In this document: piece after piece, positions 5,078-59,900 of the stretch
Position numbering within the stretch: position 1 is the first letter of the stretch
Layout of the letters: each line of letters begins with the position of its first letter
Assembly (NCBI GenBank): GCA_013239625.1
Contig: MU053559.1
Coordinates: forward strand, 1,366,001-1,430,000
Direction of reading: 5' to 3'
Length of the DNA stretch: 64,000 nucleotides
DNA from: Lama guanicoe
Lineage: Eukaryota
Translations under genes and position numbers: made by a program
Notes under the pieces: generated by a model
The model's database searches: none
What the model saw: the letters and a program-made list of their open reading frames with translations, nothing else
What the model was told of the DNA's origin: nothing

Positions 5078-5988
5078 TCACCTATGCATTGAACTGTGCG
5101 AAAGCGGGTATGTCTTGCTTTTACCATGGCAATCCCGTCTGGAGTCATGGGGAGGATTTTCCCTGTCTGAGCTCTCTCTCTTTACCCTGACTTTCTCTTT
5201 ATTCCCATCACTTTCTGCTTCTGAATCACTCAGCTCCAAATCTGGGCAATAGCCATCGTTTTCCTGATATGGAGCGCTCCCTGCAGACCGCCTGGCAAGC
5301 TGCCTACCCCAGAGCTGCTCCTTGGGGTTAATATTCTTGGTTGGCTTCACACAGCACTGGAGGTCCTCTGTGGTCCTCGCCCACCTGTTGGTGGCCTCTT
5401 TAAAGGACCTGCTGAAGTGTTCCATGGTAGATTTTCTAAAGCTGCTCTGACTACTCAAGTGGGAGCTGAGCATCGACTCCTGGTCACAGAACATCTCACT
5501 TGAACTGTCTTTTTGGGTGACATCCCCAGACCAGCTGCCCTCCAGGCCATTGGATTTGGCAAACTTGGAGTTAGGCTGACTTTTCCCATTCCCAATGGAA
5601 GACTGTCCATGCAGGGCAGCCTGAAGGACCAGAGGCTTTCCCAGCGACTGCCCGTGACAGAACTCCGGAGATGGAGTTCTCCAAGCAGGACTGGGATCCT
5701 TTGCTTCACTTCTAGAATGGCCAAGACTGGCCAGAAAACAGTTATTCTTGCTCTCTAGGGGGTGCCTTGGATATGGTTTCATTCTCATTTCTAGTGATTC
5801 CTGAGCCACCTGCATGCTCCTCATATTGCGAACAGGGGAGTTGCCGTCAGGAGAGAGGGGTCCGTGATCAGGCTCTGAGGAGCTGTTTCTGCAGTCTTCC
5901 GGGGCTGATCTGGGCATTTTTAACTTTAAGGTAATTCGTGGCGGTGGGTAAAACAATGAGTTTTCTAGTGCACTTGTCAAAGGAAGTC
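5078..5988 (-). CDS. JADE3: JADE3 last exon, coding part, [24 protein letters not shown]...HSSMHR*
   Basis: Lies within ORF 5078..5998; acceptor tctttctttttgatctcag; TGA at 5080-5078; 911 nt. Confidence 0.97.
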
Positions 5989-8900
5989 CTGAGATCAAAA
6001 AGAAAGATTCATTTTAACAACTGATTTAAATAATGGTGTATGTTTTCATGCAAACAGAAATATAAGAAAGTGAGGGTAGTGATACGCATAACCAGACAAA
6101 ATAGACTTTAAAACAATGGCTATAACAAAAGACAAAGAAAGGCATTCTATAATGCTGAAGGGAGCAATACAAAGGAGGCTATTATACTTATTAATATATA
6201 TGTACCTAATACAGGAACATCTAAATACATACAGCAAATACTGACAGAAAGGGAGAAACTGACAATAATACAATGATAGTAGGGGCTTTAACCTCACTGA
6301 CATAATTGGACTCAGCCTGGGGATCATCCAGACAGAAAATCAATAGGCAACAATGGTCTTAAATGACACAACAGACGAGTTGGACTTAATTGGTATCTAC
6401 AGGGTACTATATCCAAAACCAGCAGAATTCACATTCTTTCCAAGTGCACACTGAACATTCTCTAGGACGGATCACATGCTGAGCCACAAGTCTTAACAGA
6501 TTTAAGAGGACAGAAATTATACCAAGCATTTTTTTCCAACCACAATGGTATAAACTAGAAATCAACTACAGAAAGAAAAATGAGAAGAGAACAAACACAT
6601 GGAGACTAAACAACATGCTACTAAAAAACCAATGTGTCAATGATGAAATCAGAGAGGAAATTAAAAAATACCTTGAGACAAACGACAATGAAAACATAAC
6701 CACAAAAAATCTATGGGACACAGCAAAATCAGTCTTAAGAGGGAGTTCATAGCAATAAAGGCCTTTTTGAAAAAACAGGAAAAATCTCAGATAAACAACC
6801 TAACCTACCACCTAAAAGAATTAGCAAAAGAAGAATGAAAAAACCTAAAGTCAGCAGAAGGAAAGAAATAATAAAGATCAGAGAGGAAATAAATAGAGAT
6901 TAAAAAAGCAATTAAAAAATCAATAAAACCAAGTGCTGTTTTTTTTTTGGAAGAGTAAACAAAATTGACAAACCTCTGGCCAGACTCAGAAGAAAAGAGA
7001 GAGGACCCAAATAAACAAAATAATAAAGGAAAGAGGAGAAATTACAACCAACATACAAAAACCCCCCCCAAAACCCTTGTAAGATAATACTATGAACAAT
7101 TATAGGCCAACAAACTGGACACAACTGAGAAGGACTGGACAAATTTCTAGCAATGCCAAGACTGAATCAAGAAGAAACAATTTGAACAGACTAGTAGTAA
7201 AATTGAATTATAATGAAAAAGCTCCCATCAAACAAAGTCCAGGACCAGACAGTTTCACAAGGGAAATCTATCAAACATACAAAGAAGAACTAATACCTAT
7301 CCTTCTCAAACTGTTCCAAACATCTAAAGAGGATGGAACACCCCCAAATTCGTTCTACGAGGTCACCATTACCCTGATACCAAAATCAAAGATATGACCA
7401 AAAAGGAAAACTAGATGCCAGTATCTTTGATGAATAGAGATGCAAAAGTCCTTAACAAAATATTTGCAAGCCAAATCCAACCATATATAAAAAGGAACAT
7501 ACATCATGATCAAGTTGGATTTATTCCAGAAACACAAGAATGGCTCAGTATCTGCAAATCAATCAGTGTGACACACCATGTTAACAAAAGGATAAAAACC
7601 ACATGAACATCTCTATAAATGTAAAAAAAAGCATTTGACAAAATTCAACATCCATTCATAATAAACACTCTTATCAAAGTTGGTACAGAGGGAATATATC
7701 TCAACAATGAAGACCATTTATGACAAACCCATAGCCAACATTATATTCAACAGTGAAAGTTGAAAGCCTTTTCTCTAATTCAGGAACAAGACAAGGATGC
7801 CTACTCTTGCCACTTCTATTTAACATAGTACTGGAAGTCCTAGCCACAGCAACCACACAAGAAAATAGCATCCAAACTGGAAGGGAAGAGGTAAAATGGT
7901 CACTGTTTGCAGATGACATGATACTTTACATAGAAAACCCTAAACTCTCCACCCAAACACTACTAGAATAAAAAAAATTCAGCAAAGTTGCAGGATACAA
8001 GATTAATATACAGAAATCGGCTGCTTTTCTATACACTAATAATGAACTATCAGAAAGATAAAGTAAAAAAAAATCCTGCTTAAAATCACATCAAAAGGAA
8101 TAAAATAATTAGGAATAAACAACCAAGTTGTTGAAAGACCTATACTCTGAAAACTATAAAACACTGCTGAAGGAAACTGAAAATCACATAAAGAAACAGA
8201 AAGATATCCCATGCTCTTAGATTCAAATAATTAATATTGTTAAAATGGACATACTACCCAAAGAAATCTATAGACAATGCAATTCATATCAAAATATCCA
8301 TTACAGTTTTCACAGAACTAGAACAAATAATCCTAAAATTCATGTGGAATCACAAAAGGCCCTGAATTGTCAAAGCAACCTTGAATAAAAAGAGCAAAGC
8401 TGGAAGTATCATGCTCCCAGACTTCAGATTATACTACAGAGCTACAGTAATCAAAACAGCATGGTACTGGCACAAAAACAGACACACAGATCAATGGAAC
8501 AGAACAGAGAGCCCAGAAATAAACCCATGCACCTATAGTCAATTAATCTACAACAAAGGATGCAAGACTATACAATGGAGAAAAGACAGTCTCTTCAACA
8601 GGTGGTTGCTGGGAAAACTGGACAGCTACATGTAAAATAATGAGCACTTCCTCACACCATATACAAAAATAAACTCAAAATGGATTAAAGACCTAAATGT
8701 AAGACCTAAAATCATAAAATTCCTAGAAGAAAACAGGCAGAACATTCTTTGCAATAAATAATAGCAATTTTTTTTGGATCTGTCTCCTAAGGTCAAAGAA
8801 ATGAAAGCAAAAATAAACAAATGGGACCTAATTAAACTTAAAAGCTTTTGCAAAGCAAAGGAAACCACTGACAAAATGAAAACCTACAGAATGGGAGAAA

Positions 8901-11900
8901 ATATTTGCAAATGATATGATCAACAAGGGGTTAATATCCAAAATATATAAAGAGCTCATAAAACTCAATATCAAAAAAAAATAAATAAAAGCAACCTGAT
9001 CAAAAAATGGGCAGAAGACCTCAACAGACATTTTTCCAAAGAAGACGTACAGATGGCTAACAGGCACATGAAAAGATGCTCAACATCATTAATTATTAGA
9101 AAAATGCAAATCAAAACCACAATGAAATATCACCTCACACCTGTCAGAATGGCTATTATCAAACAGTTTATAAATAACAAATGTTGGTGAGGATGAAAAG
9201 GGAACCCTTGTACAGTGTTGGTGGGAGTATAAATTGGTGCAGACACTGTGGAAAACAGTATGGAGGTTCCTTAAAAAACTAAAACTAGAACGACCATATG
9301 ATCCAGCAATTTCAGTCCTGGGAATACATCCAGAAAAAATGAAAACACTATTTCAAAAAGATATATGCACCCCAAATTCACAACAGCACTATTTACAATA
9401 GCCAAGATATGGAAGCAACCCAAGTGCCCATGAACAAAGGACTGGATAAAGAAGTTGTGGTATATATTTACAATGGAATACTACTCAGCTATAAAAAGGA
9501 ATGAAATTCTGCCAGTTGAGGCAACATGGATGACCTAGAGAATATTGCATTTAGTGAAATAAGTCAGACAGAAGAAGACAAATACTGTATGATATCATTT
9601 ATATACGTAATCTAAAAAATAATACGAAAGAATGTATATGCCAAAGAGAAACAGACTCACAGATATAGAAAACAACCTTGTGTTTATCAAAGGGGAGAGG
9701 GGCAAACTAGGGGTATGGGATTAAGAGATACAAACTACTACATATAAAACAGGCTAAGCAACAAGGATATATTGTACAGGAATTATACCCATTACCTTGT
9801 AATAATTTTTTTGCATATATATTTTTTATTGAAGTATAATCAGTTTACAGTGTTGTGTCAATTTCTGGTGTACAGCACTGTAATAACTTTTAATGGAATA
9901 TAAGCTGTAAAGATACTGAATCACTATGCTGTATACCTGAAATTAATATAATTTTGTAAATCAACTATACTTCAATTAAAAAAGAAAAAAATTAATAAAT
10001 AATGGTGTAGTGCTTACGGCAGAGTGAGTTGTAGACATACACATCACATACCTACTCTTCCAAATGTCTAAAAAGCACCCCTCTTTGATGTGTATGTATA
10101 GCCACTGAAATGAGCTGAACTAGATGCTGGGGCAAGGGATGCTATAAGTGGAAAACTCAGGAATGACACTGTCTGCTGTGTGACTCCCCAACGTTTTCAC
10201 CTCTGCTCTCCCAGTCTGTAAAATTATCACAAAGACTAGCGTGGTGCCTCCTACATCCTTTCTCTGTCCCTTCCATTTCTGAAAAGAATGTCACTAGCAG
10301 CAGTTTAGAACAGGGCTTCCCCATTTGTGTGTCTGTATGTGTGCATGTGTGGGTACTGCACAGCACAAAGGACATGCCTTAAACATAGAGATTTCATACC
10401 CCACCCTCCAGTCTCTTCTGGTCTTCCTAAAGCAAATCAAATACAAACCTGCAAGAATGTAGCACAGGTTTTGCTGGGTGAAGAGTATGTGAGTATGTGT
10501 TTTAACCTGGTATTAGTAGCAGTGTTAGTGGGTGTATGTCCTTAACCTAAAATAACTTCCTCACTATGAATGATCATTGGAGGTGTGGAGTAGGTTTTGC
10601 AGTGGCAAGGCCAGCAGAAAAGAATCATGATGTTCTTGCCAACGGTCTGTTATGGACTTGGCCTGGGGAGCACTGGCAATCAGTTACCTGGTTATATCAG
10701 TCCTACAATCATACTTAGAAGAGGTCTTCTTCTCTCTATTATTTTGAGTGCTCTGAAATTAAAAGGGCACTACCAAACAACTTCTGTGCGTGGACTTGAC
10801 CTTTGCCCATTACTATTTCACTGTAGCCTCACAAAAATGACATATAGCGAGGACAACTACTAGGAGCCCCAATGGGCAGCACACATGCAGTTATGGGGCT
10901 GGCTCCCACTAATCAGAAGCCACATAGTCTAGAGGCCAATTTCCTTGGCACCATAGGGGCTCCTCCTCCTGTCCTTTGGTTCTCCTTGTCTTGTCCATCA
11001 TGATGCCCTTGTGGCTGAGCAGCCTTGCTACCTCTTGCTACACCATTCTGCTGTGACCCATGATATTCACAAATAGTCACAAGCCTTTGATGCCTATCTG
11101 ATACCTCATTTCTGGGTGTCTTCTCTTGTGCTATGGCTGGTCCTTGGCAGAAGCTGGATTCTGTACACCCTGCCCAGTCAGCCCTGGTTGCCCAGGTTCT
11201 GCCACCGACCTCTGTGCTAAATGAGGCATAGGGAGGTTACAAATGTTACTGAATATGACTATCATTATTCCAGCCAAGCTCCTCGTGCTTAGGGCACTGG
11301 AATTATGCTCATTCGTTTCCCTCACCAAGTGGGCAGTGTACTCTGAAGGAAGGAGTTCTGTCTTGCTGACTGCTCTATCTTCTAGCTCAGTTCTTAGTCC
11401 ACAGCGGGTGCTCAATAAACATTAGTGAATAAATCAAGAGACAAGAATCCAGATCTCTAACTTCTGACTAAGCATTTGTTTTAACAGACTATTGTTAAGA
11501 TGAGTAACCGTGGAAGTAAATGTTTTTTGGAAACTAGGATTAGATTCTATCCTACTGATTTCTACATGAATCTGATGATTTTAGAATAATTTCACGGCTC
11601 CAACTAATGGCCTCTAATATCTGTCTGGGACCTAGGTTATCTGCCTTAGACCTACAATTCCCTCAGTCCCACTCTGGGATTTCTTGCCTCATGAGTCGAC
11701 AGTGAAATGGGCCATGTTATATCAGGGCTGGACTAGAACAAACGAATTTAAAAGATTTTTAAGTCAAGCAATTGACATAAAATTTATATAGGTTACCTGC
11801 AGCAATTTCTTGGTTAGCAAGCTGGACTTGCAAACTGAAGATCTGTTCTTGAACTTTGTTGTATGACAGTTTCAGCTTCTCTCGCCTGCTTATCATGTAG

Positions 11901-14900
11901 CACAGGTTTCGGACCTGAAAGCCCAACCCCCATCAAATAGAGATTTTGGTTATGTTACACAGACCTGGCAAGTGAAATAGTTTAGCTAAAATTAAGACAA
12001 CTAAAGTCAGGTGGTGGGGGGGGATGGGGGTGAGGAGAGAAGACAGAACCCAAAAGCTATGTAATGAGAGCCACTCCACAGGAATCCGGGTAGCATGGTT
12101 AGCCATGGCATCATGGTTCTCGTATCAATCAGCGGCACAAGCAAAATGCTCCAAAGCCGCCTCCCGAAGCCTACTCTCCCTGTGGTGTCATGGGCTTGAT
12201 ATTTGTCTGCACAGCCAGGCTGGGAAGGCCAAATGATAATTTAAAGGTCTGCTGGGAAGACTGTAAGTGGCTTTGTTTGCTCACACTTTCAGCTCAGCTA
12301 AGTCTTTGTAGCTGCAAGGGTGAAATCCTCCCTCTCTCATCTCTCTCATACTCCCCCATCTGGACAAATTACTCAACCTTTCTGTGTGCCAGTTTATTCA
12401 TTTGTAAATAGGGATAATAGTAGTACCTTCTTCAGAGGCATGTTAGGATTAAATGAGTTAATATTTATAAAATGCTTAGAACAGTGTTGCCACATAGTAA
12501 GTTGCTATATATGCGTGAGTTAAATTTTTAAAAGTGAGCCAAATCTACTAGTTCCCTTCCAAATTCTGGTAGGAGAGGAAGAAAAAAACAAGCCATCTCT
12601 ATAATTATACTTGATTATAAAATTCTCTAGGGTAAACACAGGGCCTAATTTATCTCTGAATTCCTACAGTACCTAATTTAGTAGATACCTGATATATATC
12701 ATAAGTTAAATTGAATTATCTGGTGCAGAGGCTCTCAATCAGGGGCAATTTCGACTTCCAGGGGGCATCTGGTAATTTGGGAACATTTTTGATTGTCGCA
12801 GATGGGTATGTGGGGATTTGCTATTGGCATCTAGTGGGTAGAGGCCAGGGATGCTGCTAAACATCTCATAGTATCCCCGACAACAAAGAACTATCCAGCC
12901 CAAAATGTCAATAGTACCAAATTTAAGAAACTCTGGGGGACAGGCACAGCTCAGTGGTGGAGCGCATACTTTAGCATACATGAGGTACCTCCATTAAAAA
13001 AAAAAAAGAAACTTTGATCTGGTGCTTTCCTAAACAAAATTCATTCTTTCTTCAGCCTGCAGTCTCATTAAGTGTGTCTGTAAAATACAGCTGAGCGAAT
13101 TTAGGTTCAACAGTGAATAAACAGTAAACCAAATGAAAATTGATTTCAGATTTAAGGTTTACAGAGCATCTAAGTGAGGCCTTTTCTATTCCCTGCATGT
13201 TCCAAAATTTAAACAGCGACCGATGTTTGGGGCCCAATGAAATCCAAAGATAAGCAAGGACACAGAAGCCCAAACTACGAATGCAAATGAGCTGCACTTT
13301 TTTAAAACTGGAAGAGGGGCCTCCATTTCCACGCAGACCCAGACCTGCACACTAGTCAGAGTTGGTCACCTTACCCTCTCTAGGTCTTGCCGTAGGTGCA
13401 TAAACATTCTCATGCGGGTGTGAATACTCTCCTCTTTTGGCTGCACCAGACCATTTTCTTCATCTTCTTTTGGAGGAAATAATGGCTTATTGAAGTTACT
13501 TTTCCTCTTTAGTTTCCAGTAGTTATAGATAAAGTCCACAGCTAGCGTGGGCAGCCCCAGCTCTTTGGCCACATCTTCCACTCGGACCAGGGAATAGAAC
13601 TCCTCCTCCAGCTCCCGAAGCTTCTGTGCCCGCAGGCTGGTCTTCTCGCTTTTGGCCTGGCTCTGCTCTGAAGCCCTGTGGAGGGGGTACTCAGCCTCCC
13701 CGAGCTTCTGCCTGTTTTGGCTGTGCTTTAGGCAGTATGACTTAAACTTCACTTCATCCCCCTCATCTAGGATGGTCTTCATCTCTAGGCTGTGCTCAAA
13801 GGCACATGTGACGTGGAAGGCAGTGATGCAGCTTTTCACCGAGCACTGTGGGAAGGAAAGACGTGTTAAGGCAGCAGGGCTGTGAGGGGAAAGGGGAAGA
13901 CTGGGCCTAAACTGAAAGCTCATAGGAAGCAAAGGAAAGATGGAAAAAGTTGGTCTTAAACTGACCATGACAGGTGCTTTATAAGTAAAGCAGGAAATCT
14001 GCTCTTACAGAAAGCAGTAAAAACAGAAGCAAAAAAAAAATTTTTCAAACTCTCCTTTAAATGTTAGCTCAAGTATTAAGTTCTTCTGAGAATTCTTCTT
14101 CAACTTCTGTACAGAGTCATGCCGTACCTTCTCTGTGACCCCTAAATCACCTTATTATATGCTTTTTATTGGTCCTTTGCCCGCTGTACCTATAGCATAG
14201 TAAAATGTCAAATCCCTGGCCATGGCTCTTACAGACAGAAGCTGTGCCATTTATCTTCGCATTGCCATCAACTATTGAACAAGCTCAACAAGATCAAGAA
14301 ATGCTTATGAACAAATGAAAGAAAAACAAAATCAGTATCACTGTCAGAGCAGCTACTGGTTCTAAAAAGGCCAGAGGAACTCTAATATCTCAGTAACCTA
14401 ACTTCTTGACATTGTTCTTATAGAGCTATGCCATCCAATATGGTACCCAACTGGCCACAAGTAGCTATTTAAATTAAAATTACATACAATTAAAAATTAA
14501 ATTCCTCAGTCATGTTAGCTACATTTCATCCATACTGGACAGCACAGATTTCCATCACACTGCAGAAAGTTCTATTGGACAGTATGGTTACAGACAATCT
14601 GAAATTAAGTTTATAAATAATTTAGAATAATATTCTGCCATTCATAGATGCAACACATTCGTGAAGTATCACTATGGAGCACGCACTGAGGGTTCACAGG
14701 GAGGCAGAGAGAACCTGGCCCATGATTGCCGGATTCCTGTGCTTCAGTTAGTCTCAATTACCGTTTGTTACGGTTAACATGTTACAGCTTTCGTTCCAGA
14801 GATTTAAAATACATGTGTGTGTTTATATGTTTATGCAGAGGAAGGAGGAAAAGCAATGGAGGATTTGTTTCAAAGGATATAGTGTGAATTCCCATGTTTA

Positions 14901-23900: not shown

Positions 23901-26900
23901 CCACTCCACCACTTCACATGGGGACTTACCTGAATACAAGCTCCTGTCTTCAGTTTGCACAGGTTGCAGACTAAGGCCCACCGACTGGGTGGAATGTGGG
24001 AGACCTTTGTGATTGGTTCCATCCTCTCAGGGCAAGCAATGCTGACCTACAAATAAAACACCACCATAAGGCAGAATGCACCAAGGCATTCCAGAAGTAC
24101 CTTTCACAAGCCATAAATGATGTTACAAAAGCTCAGAACATCAAAACAATGAGGTGAGCCATGTCTCTTAAGGTTACTTTGGAACTAAGAATAAATAAAA
24201 CCTGTCTTGAGCCACTGCTCACATTTTCAATCATTTCCAGTAATTAAACAATTCATATATAGGATGAGAGGGCACAAGTAGAGAACAGACATAGTTATCT
24301 TAATGGATCAAAGATATATACACTTTACTTAGGAATCAAAGAAAGCTACTAAGGAAAGGAGTTAAAATTCACAAAATCAAGCACTTAACATATGTTAGAA
24401 ATGGTGCCACATGCCTTGCAATTTCATTTAATCAACGAAGGATGAAAAACAGGCAGTGACAAGCCTCTCATTTCAGTTTACAAAGAAGCATGATATTGTT
24501 GGAAAGTAGCAGCAATCTGTGTAATGGAAGAGATTGCAGCGTGTAAGCAGAAAGGATAAAGATGATAACATTTAAAAGCCAGTCTTTAAAATCACGTAAC
24601 TATCATTAGCTTACTTTCTCAGCCAAAGTAGCTTTAAAATGAAATTAGTCTTTGAGAGAGTGCTGAAAGGAAAGGAATGCTTAAAAAAAAAGATATAGAA
24701 GCAACCTAAATGTCCATTGATAGATGACTGGATAAAGAAGTGGTATATTTATACAATGGAATACTATTCAGCCATAAAAATGACAACATAATGCCATTTG
24801 CAGCAACATGGATGTCCCTGGAGAATGTCATTCTAAGTGAAGTGAGGCAGAAAGAGAAAGAAAAATACCATATGAGATCGCTCATATGTGGGATCTAAAA
24901 AAAAAAAAAATAAAAAAAAGAAACAGACCAAGAATACAAACTTGTGGTTGCCAAGGGGGAGGGGAGTGGGAAGGGACAGACTGGGAGTTCGAAATTTGTC
25001 GATACTGACAAGCATATGTAGAATAGATAAACAAGATTATACTGTATAGGACAGGGAAATACATACAAGATCTTGTGGTAGCTCACAGTGAAAAAGAATG
25101 TGACAATGAATATATGTATGTTCATATATAACTGAAAAATTGTGTTCTACACTGGTAATTGACACAACATTGTAAACTGACTATAACTCAATAAAAAAAT
25201 GTTAAAAAAAGATGGATTTTTTTTCCATATGAAAATAAGGGGTCAAGCAACTTCTGGTAAAAAGTTTTTTTTTTTAATTTAAAAATATGTACATGAGTTT
25301 CTAAGAGAGAGAGATAACTTTAAAAAGTGAAGGACTGTTGAATAAGGACAGTTAAACTAGTACCAGTTCCACACACATTAAGAAACCAAAAGTAGAAAGA
25401 TCAGAGAGATCTTCAACAGCCCAAAAAGTACTAGAAACCAGGTACTAGAAACCATAAGAGAATGTCAATAGGTGAGAAAGCTTCTTTCATTTTTAAAGAA
25501 CTCGTCCTGAGTCACATTCCAGGCTTTAATATGCTGAGAGAGCCTGCTTTATTAGCTGGGGGATTTGCTGCTGGGAACTAGTGACTCTCTGGCCAGAAAC
25601 CTGAGAGTTCAATTCACATGTCCATTCGCTGGATGTTCTTAGTAAGAAAAAGAAACCACTACTCAAATTAAAAAAAAATTGACTTCTGTATCCTTAAGAA
25701 TACCATACTATGTATCTAGGACTTTGGGTTTAACTCTTGTGAATTTGATTGCTAGACAGACTGGAAGTTAACAAGAATAAAGTCAGGTAGGATTTAAAGG
25801 AGAATGAATTGCTGATATGGTATCAGCTTCCCATGAACTGCATTTTGCAAGTCTCTGTTGCTCAGCAGTTAAAATGACTAACAAATTTTCTGACTTGGAT
25901 AGGTGTCTGGGAGAAAGGATGTGAGTGGGATGTCCAAACAGATTAAAAAAAAAAGGCAGCCATAGGAAGCCAGAAATAAGAAGAAGTAATGACTGAAAGC
26001 CCTTAGGAAATATCAGCAACTAAAGGACCAGGTTAAGCAGTGAGGGATAGTATTCTGAATACAGAAGCTCTTGGAAAAATGTTGAGTCCAAGCTCCGAAA
26101 AAAGCTTCAAAGGTCAAAGGGTAACCATCATAGTACGGGAAAAGAGCTGGTGCTCACTTTATTTTTAAAAGCCTACAACTAGAAACAACTTAGATGTCCA
26201 TCAAAGGAGAATGGATAAATAAATCAACAATACTACTCAGAAATAGAAAGGCATGAATGTTCACACATACCACAGTACAGAGTGCTAGCCAGTCAGAAAA
26301 GAGTACATACTGTATGACTCCATTCATGTAAGCTTCAAAAACAGGTAAAACTAACCTATAGTGATAGAAATCAAAATGGTAGTTACTCTTGGGTAATAGA
26401 GACCCAGACAGGAACAGGGTGTGAGGGATCCTTCTGGGGGGCTCTATTTCTGGGGTATTCCATGTCTTGGTCTGGGTTGCGGACACAGATACATACATAC
26501 CGTAAAAACTTATGAAACGCTACACTGAAGATTTGGTATTTTAAGGTAAGTTTTACCTTAAAACATCTGCTGCTCATATCCTGGTCTTTTGTGCTTCTCC
26601 TCTCATTATCCAGCTGGATACATTTATCCAGAACCACTGGTAGTACCACCTATAAATTAATTAGCATGGACTTACATGCTCAGTTACATCCAAGAAGGAT
26701 GTGAGAGAGCTTAAGTGGAACCGTATCACCTCAGAAACATGGGTAGGCATGAAATATCTCCACGAAGCCTGAGTCAGTCTGAATGTTGTGGGAGAGCAAA
26801 TGGCCTCTCAGGCCCAGATGAGTTCTTACCTCTGGAATCCACAGGGCACAGCTGACATGAGCCCATTTAGTCCCTGTCCGGGTGGTCTTCATGGCTCCAC

Positions 26901-35900: not shown

Positions 35901-38900
35901 TAGATGATCAATAATGTTATCATTATTATTCTATATCTTACTATTTTCACTATTTATATAGATGGGTTAAAGCCAAGAGGCCACGGATTTATACAAACTT
36001 AAGGCATTTCCCAACCATAAGTGATAGGTGAGCGTAAGTGTTAGCCAGAGTAACACGATGCTATGAAAGATTCTCATTCTTCCATCAAATGATCCAGCAG
36101 CAAACCCATTATCTCCCCTCACCCCTTCTGACGCTTAAGAGCTCAAGGCAAGGAAACCAAGCAAGCAAAGAAACAGAAGTTTCTCATGCCAATGACTTAT
36201 TCTACAATCGATGTTTTAGATACTATATGAAGCATTAGAAAATGTAACCAAAAGGAAATTTGGATTGTTATTCCCTGGCAACTTTAAAGAACAGGGTGGG
36301 CCATCCAAAAAAAAGAGAAAGAAATAGATACAAGTGTCATCATAAAATAATAAAAATTGTTTCTCTGGAAGGCTTCTAGAGCCAGTTTCTTTAGAGTTTC
36401 CATGTATATAGAAGGATTCATAAACATAAATGTATTCATATGAATACATATAAGTATGTAAATATTATAGTCCACTCTGTAAATATGCAGTGAATTTCCT
36501 CCTAAGCATTCTTCCAAAAACTCATGATTCCAAATAATGTATGTTGTATAAAGTTAATAACTATACACATTTGCACATTTAAAATTTCCTACCACATGGA
36601 ATTTTTAAAGCCAATGGCAACAAAATATTGGAGGAAAAAAGTAGAACTCTAAATATTAACTGAAACTAAAAATCTGGGAACTGCTATCAGAGGCTTGCTT
36701 CCAACAGAAATGAACCCAACTGAAAAGGACAAGACAAGCATATGAATTCTCCAGAGACTATGAGATTAAATATGCTGTGCTTTTTTGGTGTATGACCTAC
36801 AAGGTAATCATAGAATATCTAATCTTCCCCCAAGATTCATCTTTTTATAAAAGGAAGAATATTTTGCTTAACTATTCATCTTAATTGCCTCAAATTTTAT
36901 GTGAAACAAGGTAGACTATAAATGTTCTTGAATCAAACTAATATGTTTATTAAGCTTCTGGAAGAAAACAAAGGGGAATATCTTTATGACCTGGAGACAG
37001 ATAAAGATATTTTAAATAAGACACAGAAGCCATTAACCATAAAGGAAGAGACTGAAAAACTTGTTAATCAACAATGTATAATAAACACTTACAAATCAAT
37101 TAGAAAATGACAAACAAGCCAATTAAAAACTGGGCAAAAAGATTTGAATAGACACTTCACAAATAAGATTATCCAGATGGCAAGAAAACTTTTAAAAGGT
37201 TCTCAACCTCATTAGTTATCACAGAAATGCAAACTGAAATCATAATCACCATTACCTGCCAGAATGGCTAAACTTAAAAAGATTGACCAGAAAACTAAGT
37301 GCTTGTAAGGAAACGGAGCAAACAGACCACTGCTGATGGGAATGTGAATTGGTACAGTAATTCTGGCAACCTATTGGGCAGCAGATACTATGGCTGAATA
37401 TATGCATACCCTATGACTTAGCAAACCCGTTCCTCGGAATATACTTAACAAAAAAGTACACGTGCTCATACTTCAAGATGAATAAAAATGACTGTATTAT
37501 AACAGCTGAAAACTGAAAGCAATCCAAGTATCTATCAAGATATCAAGCAGAATGGATTAAAAAATGTGGTATATTCACACAATGGAATATGACACAAGCG
37601 AAATTTAATGAACTACTACATGCAACAGCATGGATGAATCTCACAACCATAATGATGAACAAAACAATCCAGTCTCAGTATGAAGGTCAAAAACTGGCAA
37701 AACTGTCATCTATGGTGAAGGAAGTCAATTGGTGGGCAGGAGCAGAAGGAGGGCTTCTGGGGTGCTGCTAATGTTCTATTTCTTAATCTGGGTGGCAGTT
37801 AAACAAGTGTATTTTCTTTATTGAAGTATAGCCAGTTTACAATGTTGTGTCAATTTCTGGTGTACAGTATCATGTTTCAGTTATACATATACATATATTC
37901 CTTTTCATATTCTTTTTCATTATAGGTTACTGTAAGATATTGAATATAGTTCCCTGTGCTATACAAAAGAAACTTGTCGTTTATCTATTTTATATATAGT
38001 AGTTAGTATCTGCAAATCTTGAACTCCTAATTTATCCTTTCCTACCCTCTTTCCCCTCTGGTAACGACAAATTTATTTTCTATGTCTGTGAGTCTTAAAC
38101 AAGTGTATTTAATTCATGAAAATTCACTGAGTTATACAGTTATGCTTTAGTTATCTTTCTGTGTATATATTACACTTCAATGCACAATTTATAACAATGA
38201 TGATGATGTTATCTCACTCATCTTTTCATATGTATCTTGAATTAAAGGTCTGACTCTAAGGACTGAGTTTATAACAACTAAAAAAATAGAGACTGAAACA
38301 GTAATATCAAAGGCAAGGAAATGCATAGGTAAAAGGTGAAGTTAAGACACATCCACAAGGAGAAATTCTTGAATTTATAATGACAGATGGAAGGTCTATG
38401 ACAATCACAGAGAAATATTACTTCGGGGTTTTTAAAAAATGCAGCTTTAACATTTTCAAGTACATATAACACTGATACAGCTGGAGGATATCCCAGCATC
38501 ATCCCTGGGCGGTCACTATACACTAGGTAGAGGGACACTCTTTGAACGGTCACCAGACCATTGACCAAATCATCAAAAGCTCACAAGCCTAGTAGTATGA
38601 GCAGTTTTGTTAGGGTGATGTAGTAAGTGCAGTTTTTCCATGTACATTCTTGAGTGTAAATGAATGCTGTAATAACTTTCTGGATGACTGACCTTTGGTG
38701 AAAGGACCCACAATCACACCTGCTTAGTTCCACAGAAAGCAAGCCTATCCACCTGCTCCTTAGGGAGGGCCAGCTACTTCTGGCCCATGTGAACACTGCT
38801 GTGGCACTGAGGAGACAACAAAAGGAAGCTGCAACCACTCTAAGCTGATCTATAGCCTCTTCCAGTGTCTTATGCATAGTGAGTCCTCAGTATGTCTTCA

Positions 38901-47900: not shown

Positions 47901-50900
47901 ACCTGTTGGTTTCATTTAGGGAGGATTTAGAATTAATCATATGCTGAGCAAAGTAGAGAAGGAAACCAACCTTAAATATGCTGGTGACTAGGTGGCAACA
48001 AAATGACCTTCCTACCAAGAATTCTAGCCAATTAAAGTTAGTTGGGTACTGTGGAGGGAGAAAGCTAAGTCTGTAAGAAACAAAAAGTGGTGGCTTATTG
48101 CATAATGCTTTGTGTAAGGAGGTAAGAGAGGATCACAGACATATTTGTTAACACAGTTTGCACAGAGCTCAGTGCTCTGCGTGGCTAGCAGGAGAAACTG
48201 AATCACCATTTTGCTGAATACTCAGATTCATTTCTATAAATTACCAGAGTGCCTTTAATGAGACAGTGGTTAAGAGGCAATGGCAACTGACAATTGTGCT
48301 AAACGACTGTCTTTGGAAAGACAATACCGTGGGGAATCCTACCTTAAATCTGGAAAGAATACTAGAGCCAAGTATTTTTCAACCTCTAAAGTATTTTATT
48401 ATTTTTCATGTAATACACTTCTCAAAATAAATCAACTGATTGCAAAATCGTGCTTTGGGCTTGCTAACAATTACATAGCATAAGCCATGCCTTCATAGTT
48501 AATGCTTATGAAAATCTGTTCTGTTCAATTTCCTTAAGTAGCCTGGAAATATATCGCACTGGGTTGAATGGTTCCCCAAAAGATATGTCCACATCCTAAT
48601 TTCTGAAATCTGTGATTGTTACTTTATTTGGAAAAGGGATCTTTGCAGATATAAATAATTTAAGGATTCTGAGATGAAGAGATCACCCTGGAATATCCAG
48701 GTGGGCCTTAAATCCAATGACAAGTGTCTTTATAAGAGAAAGGCAGAGGGAGATTTGAGAAAGAAGAGAAGGCACTGTGACCACAGAGGCAGAGACTGGA
48801 GTGACTCATTGATCCACAAGTCAATAAATGCTGACAGCTATCAGAACCCAGAAGAGGCAAAGAACAGAATCTACCCCTGTCTCTGGAGGGAGCACAGTCG
48901 GGCTGATCTTGGACTTCTGGTCTCCAGGAACTGTGAGAAAATAAATTCCTGTTGTTTTAAGCCACCCAGTTCGTGGTAATTTGTTACAGCAGCCCTAGGA
49001 AACTAACACACACATTTACCGAACAGAAGAGTAAGTTGAAGACTCTAGAGAAAGAGACAAAAAGCAGAGGCCAATGAAATCTGGCCTTTGTCCACAGCTT
49101 CAGAAATATCAAACCTCCAGGGAACAGGTACTCTGTGAAGTCTAGGAAACCTATGACTACAGAAATACCAATCAACTCATACTCATTTTTCTTAAGCAAA
49201 TGTAGGCTAACTCTAATGACTATTATAATTTTCCTTTCCACCTTTAGAGAAAACTAGCAGACTTATATGGTAAGCTTGATTTCAATTTTACAAACTAGCC
49301 AGATTAAACAGCATCAGATCCAGGATTTCTAGAGAAGCATTTTTCACTCAAGGCAGAGTGCAAGAGTCTGCCTTATCTTGCTGTAGAAGTCAAACATTTC
49401 AAGTATGAGGCAGAACATAAAATGCTGAAGAGGGGATAGGAATGTAAGTTCAGTACTCAGGAAGATATCTGCAAAGTGATATGAAATATATTTACCAGAC
49501 TGGTCTCATGAATCTACTTCTGATAAGAAAAGGCATTTTTTAAGTTTTAAAAATAAGTACAGGCAAACAAAATAGTTACAGAATATCCTGGGTAGAGGTG
49601 TGAGTTTTATACACATACAGTGGCACAGACATACACACATATTTGTTTATATTTTCATAAAGAAATAATAAAAGGATAAACCAAGAACTTCAAAAAAAGA
49701 ATGGTTAACTCTGAGGAAAAGGGAGGAAATAGGGAGTATAGAGACAAAATCTGGATCTCTCTGAATGTATTTTGTTTCACACTTTGATATTTGAAACAGG
49801 CAAATGTTTTACATGGTTAAAATGAAATTAAAAGTCCTTAAAGAAAGGAAAATGGGTCCAAGGACAGACAACCCGAACTGGTCTACTGGTTTCACCGCTT
49901 ATAGTTTTGAGCAAGTTGTCTAAATTCTGTGTGTCTCAGTTTACTATCTGTAAAATGAGGATAATAACACTTACTTCATCCTACGAGGCTGTTGTAGAGA
50001 TTAAATAGGTGAATTTACATAAAGGGCCCAGCATAGTATTGGGCTCATCATAACTGCTAAATAAATTCTAGCTATAGTTATTTTATTATCACCATCATAG
50101 TCTCAGCTTCACTTCTAAAAGCAGAAAGAAGTATATAGCTGAGTTCTCTTATCTAGTCCATAATGTAATTAATTGTTGATGGGGTAAATGAGATGTGAGT
50201 TCATGGCTCAACTAAACGTGCATGGTTTGACTCCCAGAGATAATGTTCCAAAGCAAGAGTCCCACTGAACACTTTGACTAACATTCTACAGATCATGAGG
50301 CAATGCAGAAACTTCATAAAATAAAACATGGCTAAAGATAAAGAACATGGACCTACTGTATAGCACAGGGAACTATATTCAATATCTTGTAATAACCTAT
50401 AAAGGAAAAGAATCTGAAAAAGAATATATATATGTATTTATACACTTTGCTGCACACCTGAAACACTGTAAATCAACTATACTTTAATTTAAAAAAACCC
50501 ACATGACTATTTGTTGTTAAAGATTATGAATGAGGGATCTAGGTGTTCAGACACTGACCTAGGTAATGAAGTTGAGAAGTTTTACAAGTTCTTGATTATG
50601 TGCCTATTTTATATGCACTGGTAGTTTCCCCAAAAGTTCCTGAAACAAAAAGGCTTTGTATTTACCAGATATCTGCTCATTTATGGTCAAAGAGGGGATT
50701 CACAGGCTAACATACAGCCCAGAAGCTATGCCAAGTCCAACAGTGCATGCACATCTTGGCTTCTCAGATGCTCGCAGAAACAAAAGGGGGCCTCACTATG
50801 AATTCAATTAGAATATCAATGCTTAACCTGACAGAGCCACAAAATGAAAATGCCTTTCATGGACAGCTCTGGCTTTTTACTGTTTTCATTAACATCTCTC

Positions 50901-53900: not shown

Positions 53901-56900
53901 TGTGAAAATACTAAAACCTACTGAACTATACACTTCAAGTAGATGAATTATATGCTGTAAGAATTCTATTTCAAAAAAGATGTTTAAAACTTTTTTAAGA
54001 AAGGACAATTGTTGTGGCATCAATGGATATCATCTGAGAGGTCATGGCATCCACTCCCACCCTGCAATAACAAGGTGTCCCTCCTCTTCAGTGTGGTATC
54101 AGCAGAGACTGGGTAGGAAGCCTAGACTGTCACCACTGTCCATCAGTAACGTGGTACCCCTTAACACCACCACTCTCCCCTGCTATCAGTGGAGGCAACA
54201 AGGTGGGGATTTCCATTCCTGCCAAGTAGTAATGAGACACCTTTCCCTTTCCCAAAGAGATAACAGAACTAATTTCCTAGAGAGATAACAGAACTAGGAT
54301 GGGGAGCATAGGAATTCTGTAACTGGTATTAAAAAGTCAGAACCCCTCTTCCCCACTGGCCTGATTATCATGGAGGCTTGCTAAAACAGATTTAAATAAG
54401 GCTTAGTGTCTGATAACAGAATACCAAAAAAAAAAAAAGCCCAGGATTCAACAGAAAATCACTGATAATACTAAGAACCAGGAATGAGAAGAGACCATCA
54501 ATAGACACTAACACTGAGATGACACAGATGTTGGAATTATCTGACAAGGATTTTAAAGCAGCTATCATAATGCCTCAACAAGAAATTACAAACACTTTTG
54601 AAACAAAAAAATGGAAAGTTTCAGCAAAGAAACAGAGGATATAAAGAATAACCAAATGGAAAATTTGAAATGGAATAATATAGTAATGGAAATAACAAAC
54701 TCATGGAATAGGCTCAATAGAATAATGGAATTAACAGAATAAAGAATCAGTGAAAAAGAGAAATCACTCAATCTAATCAACAGAAAGAATATATGCTAAA
54801 AAAAAAGTCTGAAGGACCTGTGGGAAAATAACAAAAGACCTAACACTCATGCAACTGAAGTCTCAAAAGAAGAGAAAAAAGGTGGAGTTGAAAAACAGCT
54901 AAAGAAATAATGGCTGAAAATTTCCCAAACTTGGCAGAAGATAAAACTTAGATTCAGGAAGTTGATTAAACCACAAACAAAACAAACCAAAAGAAATCCA
55001 TGACTAGGCACATGAGGATCTAACTCTGGAAAACTATAGACAAAGAAAAATATTGAAAGCAACTGGAAAAGAAATGACTGATTACCTATAGGAGAGTAAC
55101 CATTTGAATGAGAGTAGATTTCTCATTAGAAACCATGCAGGCCAGAAGGAAGAAGCACATTTTTCAAGTGCTGAAAGAAAAGTTGTCAAATCAGAATTCT
55201 TTATCAAATGAAAATATCCTCCAGGATGAAGGTGGAACCAAGACATCCTCAAGTGAAGGAAAAACTAAGACAATTTATCACCAGCAGACTTCCCCTGAAA
55301 GAATGGCTGCAGGAAGTTCTTCAAATAGAAGGGAAATGGACAAAAGAAAAGATGAAACATCAGGAATAAAGAAAGAATAAGAAAATTAAAATATTGGTAA
55401 ATACTATAGACTATCCTTTTCCTCTTGAGTTTTATAATAATATTTGACGGTTGAAGCAAATATTCTAACATTATCTAATGTACTTATCAATGTACATATA
55501 GAAAATATTTAAGATAATTATAAAGGTGAGGGGTGGATAGATGAACCTAAATAGTGGTAAGGTTTCTTTACTTCACTCAAAGTGGTAAAATGTAGAGACC
55601 AGAAGACCGATTAAGTTACGTTTGTAAAAGGAAGGTCCTCCCTTTTAAAGATTGCTTCCCAAGAGCTACCACTAAAAATCTAGAGAAAGATACACCCTTA
55701 GAACTACTATCGAAAAATCAACATGGAACTTTAAAAACTATTCAAGTAATCTCCAGGAAGACAGAAAATAAAAGAGAAACAAAAAAATAGAGAAAACATA
55801 AAGAAAAACAAAAAAAAAGCAGACCAAACCAAACTGTACCTAAAGTTAAATATAAATGTTTTAAATATGCCAATTAAAACACAAAGATTGGGAGGGGTTG
55901 AGCCAAGATGGCGGGGTAGAGAGACTCACAGTTCGCCCTCCCCTACAAATACCCCAAGAAGCATATCTACAAACCCATTGAATCACACAGAACACCTGCT
56001 GAACTCTGGCAGAGTGTCTCTCATTTCGAAATACAGGAGGATTCTCACAAAATCCGATAAACAAGTTTATACTGTACAGCACAGGGAACTATATTCAATA
56101 TCTTGTAGTAATTTATGGTTAAAAAGAATATGAAAACAAATAATGTATGTTCCTATATGACTGAAGTATTACGCTGTACACTAGAAACTGACACAACATT
56201 GTAAACTGACTATACTTCAATAAAAATAAATTTAAAAAATACAGAGATTGAAAGAGTAGATTAAAAAAGATGCAACTATATATCATCTATAAGAAACACA
56301 TTTCCAGTAAAATCATATATATAAACTGAAGGTAAAAGGATGGAAAAATATACCATATACCATGTAAACATGAATCAAAAGAAAGCCAGAAACTCTATGA
56401 ATATTAGATAGATAGTGCAGACTTCATAGCAAACAAAATTACCAAAGACAAAGAAGGACATTACATGGTGATAAATTCACCAAGAAGATGCAGCAATCCT
56501 AAATATGCATGTACCTAATAATAGAGCTTCAAAATACACAAAGCAAAACTGTTAGATCTGAAAGGAGAAATAAACAAGTCCACAATTACAGTTGGAGGCT
56601 TCTACAGCCCTCTCTGAACAATTGACAAAACTATTAGGTGGAAAATCAGTCAGGATACAGAAGAATACCATCAACCAACGGGATCCAATAATAGCAGAAT
56701 ACATATTCAAGTGCTCATGAAACATTCATCAAGATAAACCAAATCGTGGGCCATAAAACAAACCTTGACAAATGTAAAAGAACGGAAATCATATAGACTA
56801 TGTTCTCTGACAAAAATGGACTCAAACTAGAAATCAATAATAGAAAGGTAGCAAGAAAGTCTCCAAATGCTTGGAAACTAAACAACACACTTCTAAATAA

Positions 56901-59900
56901 TCCACGAGTCAAAGAGGAAATCTGAGGGAAATAAATATACTGAATTGTATGAAAATGAACATATCAAAATTAATGGGATGCAGCTAAAGCAGTATTCATT
57001 CAGAGGGAAATTACAGCACTAAAATCCTTGTATTAGAAAAGAAGAAATCAGGAGTTTGGGATTAACATATACACACTACTATATATAAAACAGATAAACA
57101 ACAAGGACTTAACTGGATAGCACAGGGAACTATATTCAATATCCTATAATAACCTATAATGGAAAAGAATCTGAAAAAGAATATATATATGTGCGTGTGT
57201 GTGTGTATATGTATAACCAAATCACTTTGTTGTAGACCTGAAACTAACACAGCATTATAAATCAACTATACTTCAATAAAAAGAAAGAAAGAAAGAAAGA
57301 AAGAGAGGAAAAATCTCACCTAAGCACCCATCTCAAGAATCTAGAAAAAGAACGAAGGAAAACTAAAGCAAGAAGGAAGTAAATAATAAAAGTAAGAGCA
57401 GAAATCAATGGAATTGAAAAGAGAAAAATAACATGATTTCACTGATTTATAGAACAATTTGAGTAACACAATAAATTACGTAGTATTGGATTATAACCTA
57501 AAGTATAAAATAAATACCCATGAGTCCATACTGATATAAATAAGCTATTAAATAAAAATTGTAAAAGAAGAAAGCATCCAAGGAGATTCTTACAATTGCT
57601 TAATTTTGGGAAACAATCAGATTATCTAACATAAAGCTCTTGCAACATAAAATTTCAACAAACAGTAGCTATGAGAGGTAGGTGTGATGATGTCCATGTT
57701 ATAATGACAAAAACAAATTATTTCAGAGAAATGAAATATGCCAGCAAGGCAAAACATGGAATTAATCTCTTCTAATGCTGAGGCTAGTTTTGTTCTATAA
57801 TATCATATTTTCTCTCTTGTAACAGAATGTGACATATAAACGAAAAAATTTGCTCTCAGTAGCCCAAGTCCTCTATCTCTTGCAATAAGAGACTAATATT
57901 CTCACTGACATGAAGGCAGCAGGACTTAAGACCCAAAGCTCTAGAGTCACTTTATGTTCTAGGACTAATTGTTCTAAATGCAAAAGAAACAAGGTTTCTT
58001 TCTCACCATTCTGTAGTCAAAACCTCCTCTGGACAGATGGAAAATCTGTTTTTCTGCTCCTATTTATGTGCATTTTATTCCCTAAGTTTTTCTGCATGAT
58101 ACAGACATGTATAAATACACTGTTATCTACCATGCCCAGAAAGATCCCTAGCAAAAGATGGAAATAAAAGGAGACCTCTGAGAAAGTGACAAATGCTCTC
58201 TCTGGCTGACACACTAAAGCTACACCCCTCCACTTGCACGAGGGCAGGTGGAACCTGTGACTTGTTTCTAATCAATAGAATATGGCAAACATGATGATAT
58301 GTCACCCTCTTGATCCGGTTATGTTACATGGCAAATGTGATGGGATGTCATTCTTATGGTTACGTTATATAAGACTCAGGCTTAGCAGAATGGAGAAAAG
58401 ACCGTCCCCTTGCTGGGTTTGAAAAAGTAAGTTGCTATGTTTTGAGAGGATCTATGGAGAAGGCCACATGGTAAAGAACCATAAGCAGCCTCTAGGAGTG
58501 GAGAGCAGTCCTCTACCAAAAGCCAACAACAATAACAACAAAAATAGGGACCTTAGTCCTCCAGCTGAAAGGAGATGAATTCTGCCAACAACCAGAATGC
58601 ACTTGGAAATGAATTCTTCCCTAGTCAACCCTCCAGATGAGAGTGTAGTCCAGCCAGCACGCTGACTGCAGCCTTGAAAGATGCTGAACAGAGAACCTAG
58701 TCATGCTGCAACCAGACTCCTGACTCACAGAAACTGAGATGATAAATGTGTGCTGCTTTAAGGCACTAATTTTGTGCAACAGTTAACTAATATATTCTCT
58801 TTTCCTTTGCAGCCAAGGAAGACTACTTATAGTCAAAGTGAAGATACACAAAGTCAGTTTCTCATCATATAATTATCACAGAGGAAAGTCTACAGGATCC
58901 ACTAAACCATTACCAAATCCAAGTGCAACCCTGACACTTTGCTGCCCTTGGGGCAGAAAATGACTGGTTTCACAAGGATTGACTCATTTTTCCTGGGCTG
59001 GTGGTAGCGCTCTGAAGGCTGTGAGGACCCACCACAGCCCACAGCCCTGATCTCCAACCTAGTCTTTTCCTTCTCTGTCTACAACTTCCTCATCTATCTT
59101 TTCCTGCACTGTGTCCCACCTGCCAGTTGGCTCTTTCCAATCACAGGCCAGATCTTTGAATCTTTGGGTCCTTCCCAATTCTCCACGTCTGGCTCCCTTT
59201 GACTTCTTGGCTAGGGAAGGCTTTATATTCTAAAGCCAGGCACTTAAGTATCATCACCAAAATGAAAGTGAAGATTACTGTTTTCCGCAAAGAAAAAGAA
59301 AATGGAATCTGTCTTGAAAAACAAAAAAGTTCATCAGAAAACAAGCCTATCCATTGGTACATGGTTTATTCCTTACATCTCCAAATCTGGGTATGTAGGT
59401 ATATAAGCAGAAGGCAGCTCTCTGTCTATTTTTTTAAGTCTAAAAATTTAATATCTGATCTCACCTCAGCAGGTTTCTTGTGTTCATTTGGAATTTTTGA
59501 CTTGTTCCTATACATTGAGCCAGAAGTAAAGGAGGTGGAAGGACCTGCAAAAGATAATTAGAAAAAATACTGAGACTTATTACCTGCTAATATAACTAAA
59601 TGTCATCTAAGGGAATATGAAAGATATGACAGAGAAGAGCACAGCGACCTCATATCACTGAAGAAAATAGTTAAACTGCAACCAAGAAAGCCTCATAATG
59701 GGGTTTAACGACATTTACAGGTGACCTCCCAGGGTGTAAAAGCTTCAGCAATGTTAATGCTGAGGAGATTCAATTCGGTGTAATCATACCTCATAACAAC
59801 TTGAAATAACACAATTCATGTTCCATCTGGAGAGAAAGTATCTGCAAAAGCAACTGAAAAAACTAAAAATGTGAAGCAAGTAATCTCTGTATCCTTCAGC

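Follow-up and report, generated by a model that had tools for sequence, protein, structure and literature searches.

Human SpIREs derive from L1 RNA that was spliced from a donor near its 5' start and then retrotransposed; they are put at 131 of 6,609 full-length human L1s in the accessible part of Larson et al. 2018 (PMC5860796), where spliced human L1s are described as able to retrotranspose and are judged dead ends. Long introns from 5'UTR donors have also been recorded for SpORF2 and other spliced human L1 RNAs (97 to 1837, 290 to 1920), as far as the available sections of Belancio et al. 2010 extend (PMC2896524). Bov-A, RIME, RTESINE and the Vingi derivatives are presented in the excerpted text of Kojima 2018 (PMC5786205) as bipartite, ORF-less, non-autonomous LINEs, and within that excerpt the examples are confined to RTE, Ingi, Vingi and R2, their origin being ascribed to internal deletion. 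The same excerpt includes HAL1, a non-autonomous, L1-derived element that keeps ORF1.

We identify, in the window (the whole 64,000-nucleotide stretch of DNA analysed here), an element that joins an L1 5'UTR start to an L1 3'UTR end, has no ORF, and is a real, old and very probably spliced L1 retrocopy. Like SpIREs, it appears to be L1 RNA spliced from a 5'-proximal donor and then retrotransposed; unlike them, it has its acceptor in the 3'UTR, has lost both ORFs, uses a donor at base 166 (97 in SpIREs) and belongs to a different L1 lineage. In the published SpIRE classes the acceptor lies within the 5'UTR or ORF1 and ORF2 is kept, whereas here the acceptor lies 128 nt past the ORF2 stop. With the bipartite LINEs it shares its small size, a build of LINE 5' and 3' ends only with no ORF between them, and the need for an autonomous partner, and it differs from them in being L1-derived with splice-type ends and in being known here as one copy. 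HAL1, too, derives from L1 by internal shortening and is mobilised in trans, but our element keeps no ORF, and ORF1 is gone with the rest. A long intron from a 5'UTR donor recalls SpORF2, although SpORF2-type RNAs keep ORF2 and have been seen as RNA. Processed pseudogenes are copied in trans by L1 proteins from spliced poly(A) RNA, with a target duplication; in contrast to these, the parent RNA of the element would be L1 itself, and part of the internal promoter is carried along. Processed pseudogenes are mentioned in the accessible part of PMC5860796. A tRNA- or 7SL-type SINE, transcribed by RNA polymerase III, was considered and rejected: Rfam returned no matches at E up to 1, and the head is L1 5'UTR rather than a derivative of tRNA, 7SL, 5S or snRNA.

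A spliced L1 form with a 3'UTR acceptor would fall outside the two published SpIRE classes, and we found no earlier description of it in the searchable literature. Searches over titles and the beginnings of abstracts returned no 5'UTR-to-3'UTR spliced L1, and acceptors close to the 3' end of L1 may be listed in Belancio 2006. Such an element is likewise absent from the available passages of the camelid repeat surveys PMC8605555 and PMC6675863, the TE family table of PMC3183009, 10.1101/2025.02.02.635956 and PMC2896524; Repbase/Dfam and the supplements of camelid libraries may hold it.

The 345-base element is one insertion with a target duplication and an A-tail, inside ORF2 of an older L1. 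Its target duplication is 15 bp long (55876-55890 and 56236-56250, both +), with 13/15 positions identical and two mismatches; extension to the left adds five mismatches in five bases, and the two copies are followed by different bases. The left copy begins at an L1-endonuclease-type site, as judged against the endonuclease consensus given in the accessible part of PMC5860796, and the first A's of the right copy are indistinguishable from the A-tail. Target duplication, A-tail and endonuclease-type site, the retrotransposition hallmarks of SpIREs, are all present. Between the duplications lie a first exon of 166 nt, an L1 5'UTR start with a complete 5' end (55891-56056, +), and a second exon of 179 nt, an L1 3'UTR end with poly(A) signals and a decayed A-tail (56057-56235, +). 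We take the motif CAAGATGGCG at 55904-55913 (+), which starts at the 14th base of the element, to be YY1-type, a predicted site whose binding is putative. The sole ATG of the head opens a three-codon frame and no ORF is kept in the 345 nt; the tail carries AATAAA at 56219 and 56225, followed by a short, decayed A-tract. Both breakpoints, at the junction 56056/56057 (+), fall where a donor (G|GT AGG, inferred) and an acceptor (AG|) would lie on the 5' and 3' sides. The anatomy reported in the initial annotation, with its coordinates, 15-bp duplication, 166-nt head, 179-nt tail and missing ORFs, was recovered.

The host element runs in the same orientation. Remnants of its ORF1 lie at 54892-55315 (+; Pfam PF02994, E 5.7e-06; PF17490, E 0.012), and the endonuclease region of its ORF2 resumes right after the insertion, at 56251-56352 (+), with a weak match to ORF2p residues 34-62 (E 0.053) in which the right flank aligns from about residue 28-29. 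The best 9 of 11 matches to this flank are L1 ORF2p or ORF2p variants, and the left and right flanks share one reading frame. Since there is one target duplication and the host frame resumes behind it, head and tail came as a single unit by target-primed reverse transcription. Some 800 bp downstream, the old host L1 also contains a second, 5'-truncated L1 tail (57049-57300, +), which belongs to a different subfamily.

The window holds no second L1 head, and the donor was placed with relatives from elsewhere. Five unspliced heads, L001-L005, came from a head-motif scan of metagenomes and are of a type that we take to be whale L1. The element head aligns to all five, at 60-62% identity to L001, L002 and L005, which also carry the CAAGATG core of the YY1-type motif, and at 50% to L004, owing to an internal duplication. 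In L001, L002 and L005 the stretch preceding the search motif outscores 1000/1000 shuffles, and by this comparison 55891-56056 is a genuine L1 5' start. All five DNA heads read GTAGGG where the element head ends, and in a multiple alignment 56056 falls on the G that immediately precedes this hexamer. Pairwise register tests under 72 scoring schemes made offset 0 outright best in 47/72 for L005 and in 0/72 for the other four heads, which preferred offsets of -1 to -3 or scattered shorter ends.

The closest relative is P0002, a single Logan-derived protein that is the translation of an unspliced L1 head and was retrieved by a protein search with the junction-spanning frame. It matches the element ungapped at 29/40 residues up to codon 55 and at 1/25 thereafter. 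Codon 56 starts at 56056, where the element reads G|AT and P0002 reads Gly-Arg; the glycine sets the donor +1 base as G. L003, read in the frame of P0002, likewise encodes Gly-Arg, with G|GT AGG as its DNA, and the match between P0002 and L003 continues beyond the donor (E 1.7e-07). P0002 thus decides the register left ambiguous by the pairwise tests and puts the predicted donor exactly at 56056. The T at +2 is taken from relatives and is presumed for the parent: it stands in 5/5 DNA heads and, as Val (GTN) at the donor site, in 116/119 more distant head translations among the matches listed. The deleted part would therefore begin with GT, as in SpIREs, with its G drawn from P0002 and its T from related heads rather than from DNA of the same subfamily. 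The initial annotation had tied its reading to a GT following the base that matches 56056, and this dinucleotide is there in all five related DNA heads.

Several further features of these heads were observed. Within the unspliced head of L004 a segment of about 43 nt is duplicated in tandem (801-870). In this L1 lineage the first ~160 bases frequently lack stops in one frame and are called as small proteins (P0004, P0006-P0123); such calls on L1 heads may reflect noise in gene calling over young repeats. The residues W-V-G at the donor site are nearly invariant, occurring in 111/119 of the listed head translations. P0037 departs from the L1 sequence about eight codons before the donor, at a different junction.

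The tail of the element is 82-84% identical to the L1 tails at 25026 and 37977 and 76-77% identical to those at 57093 and 50340, and it groups with the 25026/37977 subfamily at 7/7 diagnostic columns. Where the two closest tails differ, the element splits 21 to 19 between them, which places its parent between the two. As in SpIREs, the deleted part ends in AG with a usable branch point, although the pyrimidine tract is weak. AG directly precedes the homologous join point in 4/5 other tails of the window, the fifth (near 9750) being ambiguous by one base; the initial annotation's claim of an AG at the junction in other L1 tails is borne out to that extent. A TACTRAC box, judged against the U2 branch consensus, occurs in both closest tails with its branch A at -19 from the junction, as TACTGAC in the reference unspliced tail at 25003-25026 (+), which ends in the acceptor AG, and as TACTAAC in the one at 37985-38008 (-), where no other AG lies between the box and the junction AG. 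Two AGs stand between the box and the junction AG in the 25026 tail, and the other three L1 tails of the window have no TACTRAC box. A box so placed precedes 19/9016 AGs in the window (0.2%), a frequency to be read knowing that the box was sought after the sequence had been seen. The pyrimidine fraction before the acceptor AG is only 0.29 and 0.41 in the two closest tails, in agreement with the initial annotation's caveat that a tract is missing; the branch box 19 nt upstream of the AG offsets this weakness. In the 25026 copy the ORF2 stop lies at 24896-24898 (E 1.2e-05 to ORF2p residues 1236-1274), and the homologous join point, 128 nt beyond it, is in the 3'UTR. A short L1 tail at 50336-50490 (+) starts just a few bases before the same acceptor AG and apparently has a separate target duplication; its appearance is that of an ordinary truncation rather than of a second splice.

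No further copies with the same junction were found within the window. Junction-pattern scans and head-motif scans both gave 0 in viral contigs and 0 in prokaryote genomes, and a tail-motif scan of viral contigs also gave 0. None of the five loci from the metagenome head-motif scan is spliced (0/5). Protein searches with the junction-spanning frame gave no candidate in one case, four hits including P0002 and P0004 in another, P0002 only in a third, and in a fourth 200 hits, among the best 120 of which 0/120 run on into an L1 tail. Since all these collections apparently contain next to nothing of this lineage, such negatives carry little weight. PDB sequence searches with pieces of the L1 found no match.

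The element differs at 10/129 columns where both close tails agree, and its duplication at 2/15, which together indicate that it is old; by these differences its age is probably tens of millions of years. Contigs of 14 runs from four coded organisms, ~2,000 million letters per run, contain 0.81-0.88 of the words in 55200-57000. Because an empty site would give at most about 0.79, these word shares suggest that the insertion is probably common to all four organisms. RNA runs gave word shares of 0.06-0.35. The locus is decayed and bears no sign of function.

We propose, with a probability of roughly 0.6, that full-length L1 RNA is spliced repeatedly in this way and copied in trans, and that the copies are mostly dead ends. 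A full-length L1 would be transcribed from its internal promoter, and the spliceosome would join the donor near the cap (G|GTAGG, 166 nt into the RNA) to the 3'UTR acceptor (TACTRAC at -19, then AG). A single intron, removed co-transcriptionally, would take out the remaining 5'UTR together with ORF1 and ORF2, leaving a capped, polyadenylated, non-coding RNA of ~345 nt. The ORF1p and ORF2p of another L1 would then have copied this mini RNA, in the manner of a processed pseudogene, by target-primed reverse transcription into the ORF2 of the older L1; we infer action in trans because both ORFs are lost. Full-length parents would give rise to minis repeatedly, each mostly a dead end. As a 345-nt RNA should be easily copied whole and long L1 RNAs are usually 5'-truncated, minis could become common relative to full-length L1s with no amplification of their own. 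What the sequence shows directly is the anatomy, the hallmarks of insertion and the placing of both breakpoints at donor and acceptor; splicing in vivo, proteins supplied in trans, recurrence and a dead-end fate are the proposed part.

A possible but unlikely alternative is that minis form an ORF-less family driven by RNA polymerase II, which arose from L1 by splicing and has since multiplied from source copies of its own. The intact 5' end with its YY1-type motif and the two AATAAA signals suit such a family, and ORF-less bipartite families of like build are on record for RTE, Ingi, Vingi and R2 in the excerpted text of PMC5786205. However, the element retains none of the GC-rich 5'UTR past base 166 (>700 nt in L001, L002 and L004), and the accessible part of PMC5860796 reports that human SpIREs with partial 5'UTR loss have reduced promoter activity and that L1 proteins favour their own RNA. 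The RNA fold is at chance level (z -0.22), Rfam offers no match, and high copy number alone would be no proof of re-amplification.

An improbable alternative is a one-off internal deletion, arising either when the reverse transcriptase jumped between template sites or when a full-length L1 was later shortened in the genome, with ends that fall at GT and AG fortuitously. The single copy found, the weak pyrimidine tract and the one G shared at the junction are all compatible with it. Against it, both ends lie at splice dinucleotides, for which chance gives 0.033 x 0.066 = 0.2% at random ends, or about 0.4% with a one-base slide, and a branch box at -19 is present for only 0.2% of AGs. Microhomology at the junction is 1 nt, the single shared G, which makes template switching unlikely. 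The AAAAT microhomology put forward in the initial annotation as a deletion or template-switch explanation does not hold, as it stops short of the junction, where only 1 base is shared. A jump at AAAAT should moreover have left the AG of the tail, and the element instead carries the CCG of the head, confirmed as head-derived by a Ser codon in P0002. Overall, we consider a splice origin of the element very probable. The splicing part of the earlier interpretation stands, given the donor at 56056, the branch box and the failure of the microhomology, and its proposal of a SINE-like family is not shown by these searches, which found no second copy.

Highly improbable is late splicing in cis, in which the RNA is translated, loaded with ORF2p on its poly(A), returned to the nucleus and spliced before reverse transcription, or trans-splicing of two L1 RNAs; both fit the same breakpoints and the former would explain how an RNA with no ORF is copied efficiently in the face of cis preference, yet splicing is normally co-transcriptional. 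Trans-splicing onto L1 is proposed in the available portion of bioRxiv 10.1101/2025.02.02.635956.

Under repeated splicing of full-length L1 RNA with copying in trans, one intron would strip away all L1 coding capacity, an extreme case of L1 splicing itself out. If such events are frequent, they may offer the host a simple means of curbing L1 through its RNA, and copies left in the genome would form a dated record of the splicing rate of each L1 subfamily. Spliced minis are likely annotated as two adjacent L1 fragments and hence overlooked. Re-amplification, should it occur, would open a path by which an autonomous L1 could give rise to a parasite of SINE size that lacks a polymerase III head. 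A self-amplifying family, if real, would supply an L1 counterpart to the RTE, Ingi, Vingi and R2 list in the excerpted text of Kojima 2018 (PMC5786205) and a counter-example to the view of spliced L1s as dead ends.

Two other stop-free stretches were seen in the window. One, at 5081-6013 (-), is a frame of 311 codons with no Pfam match. The other, at 13369-14004 (-), matches a PHD-like zinc finger (PF13771, E 2.6e-08) and is probably a host-gene exon or a retrocopy.
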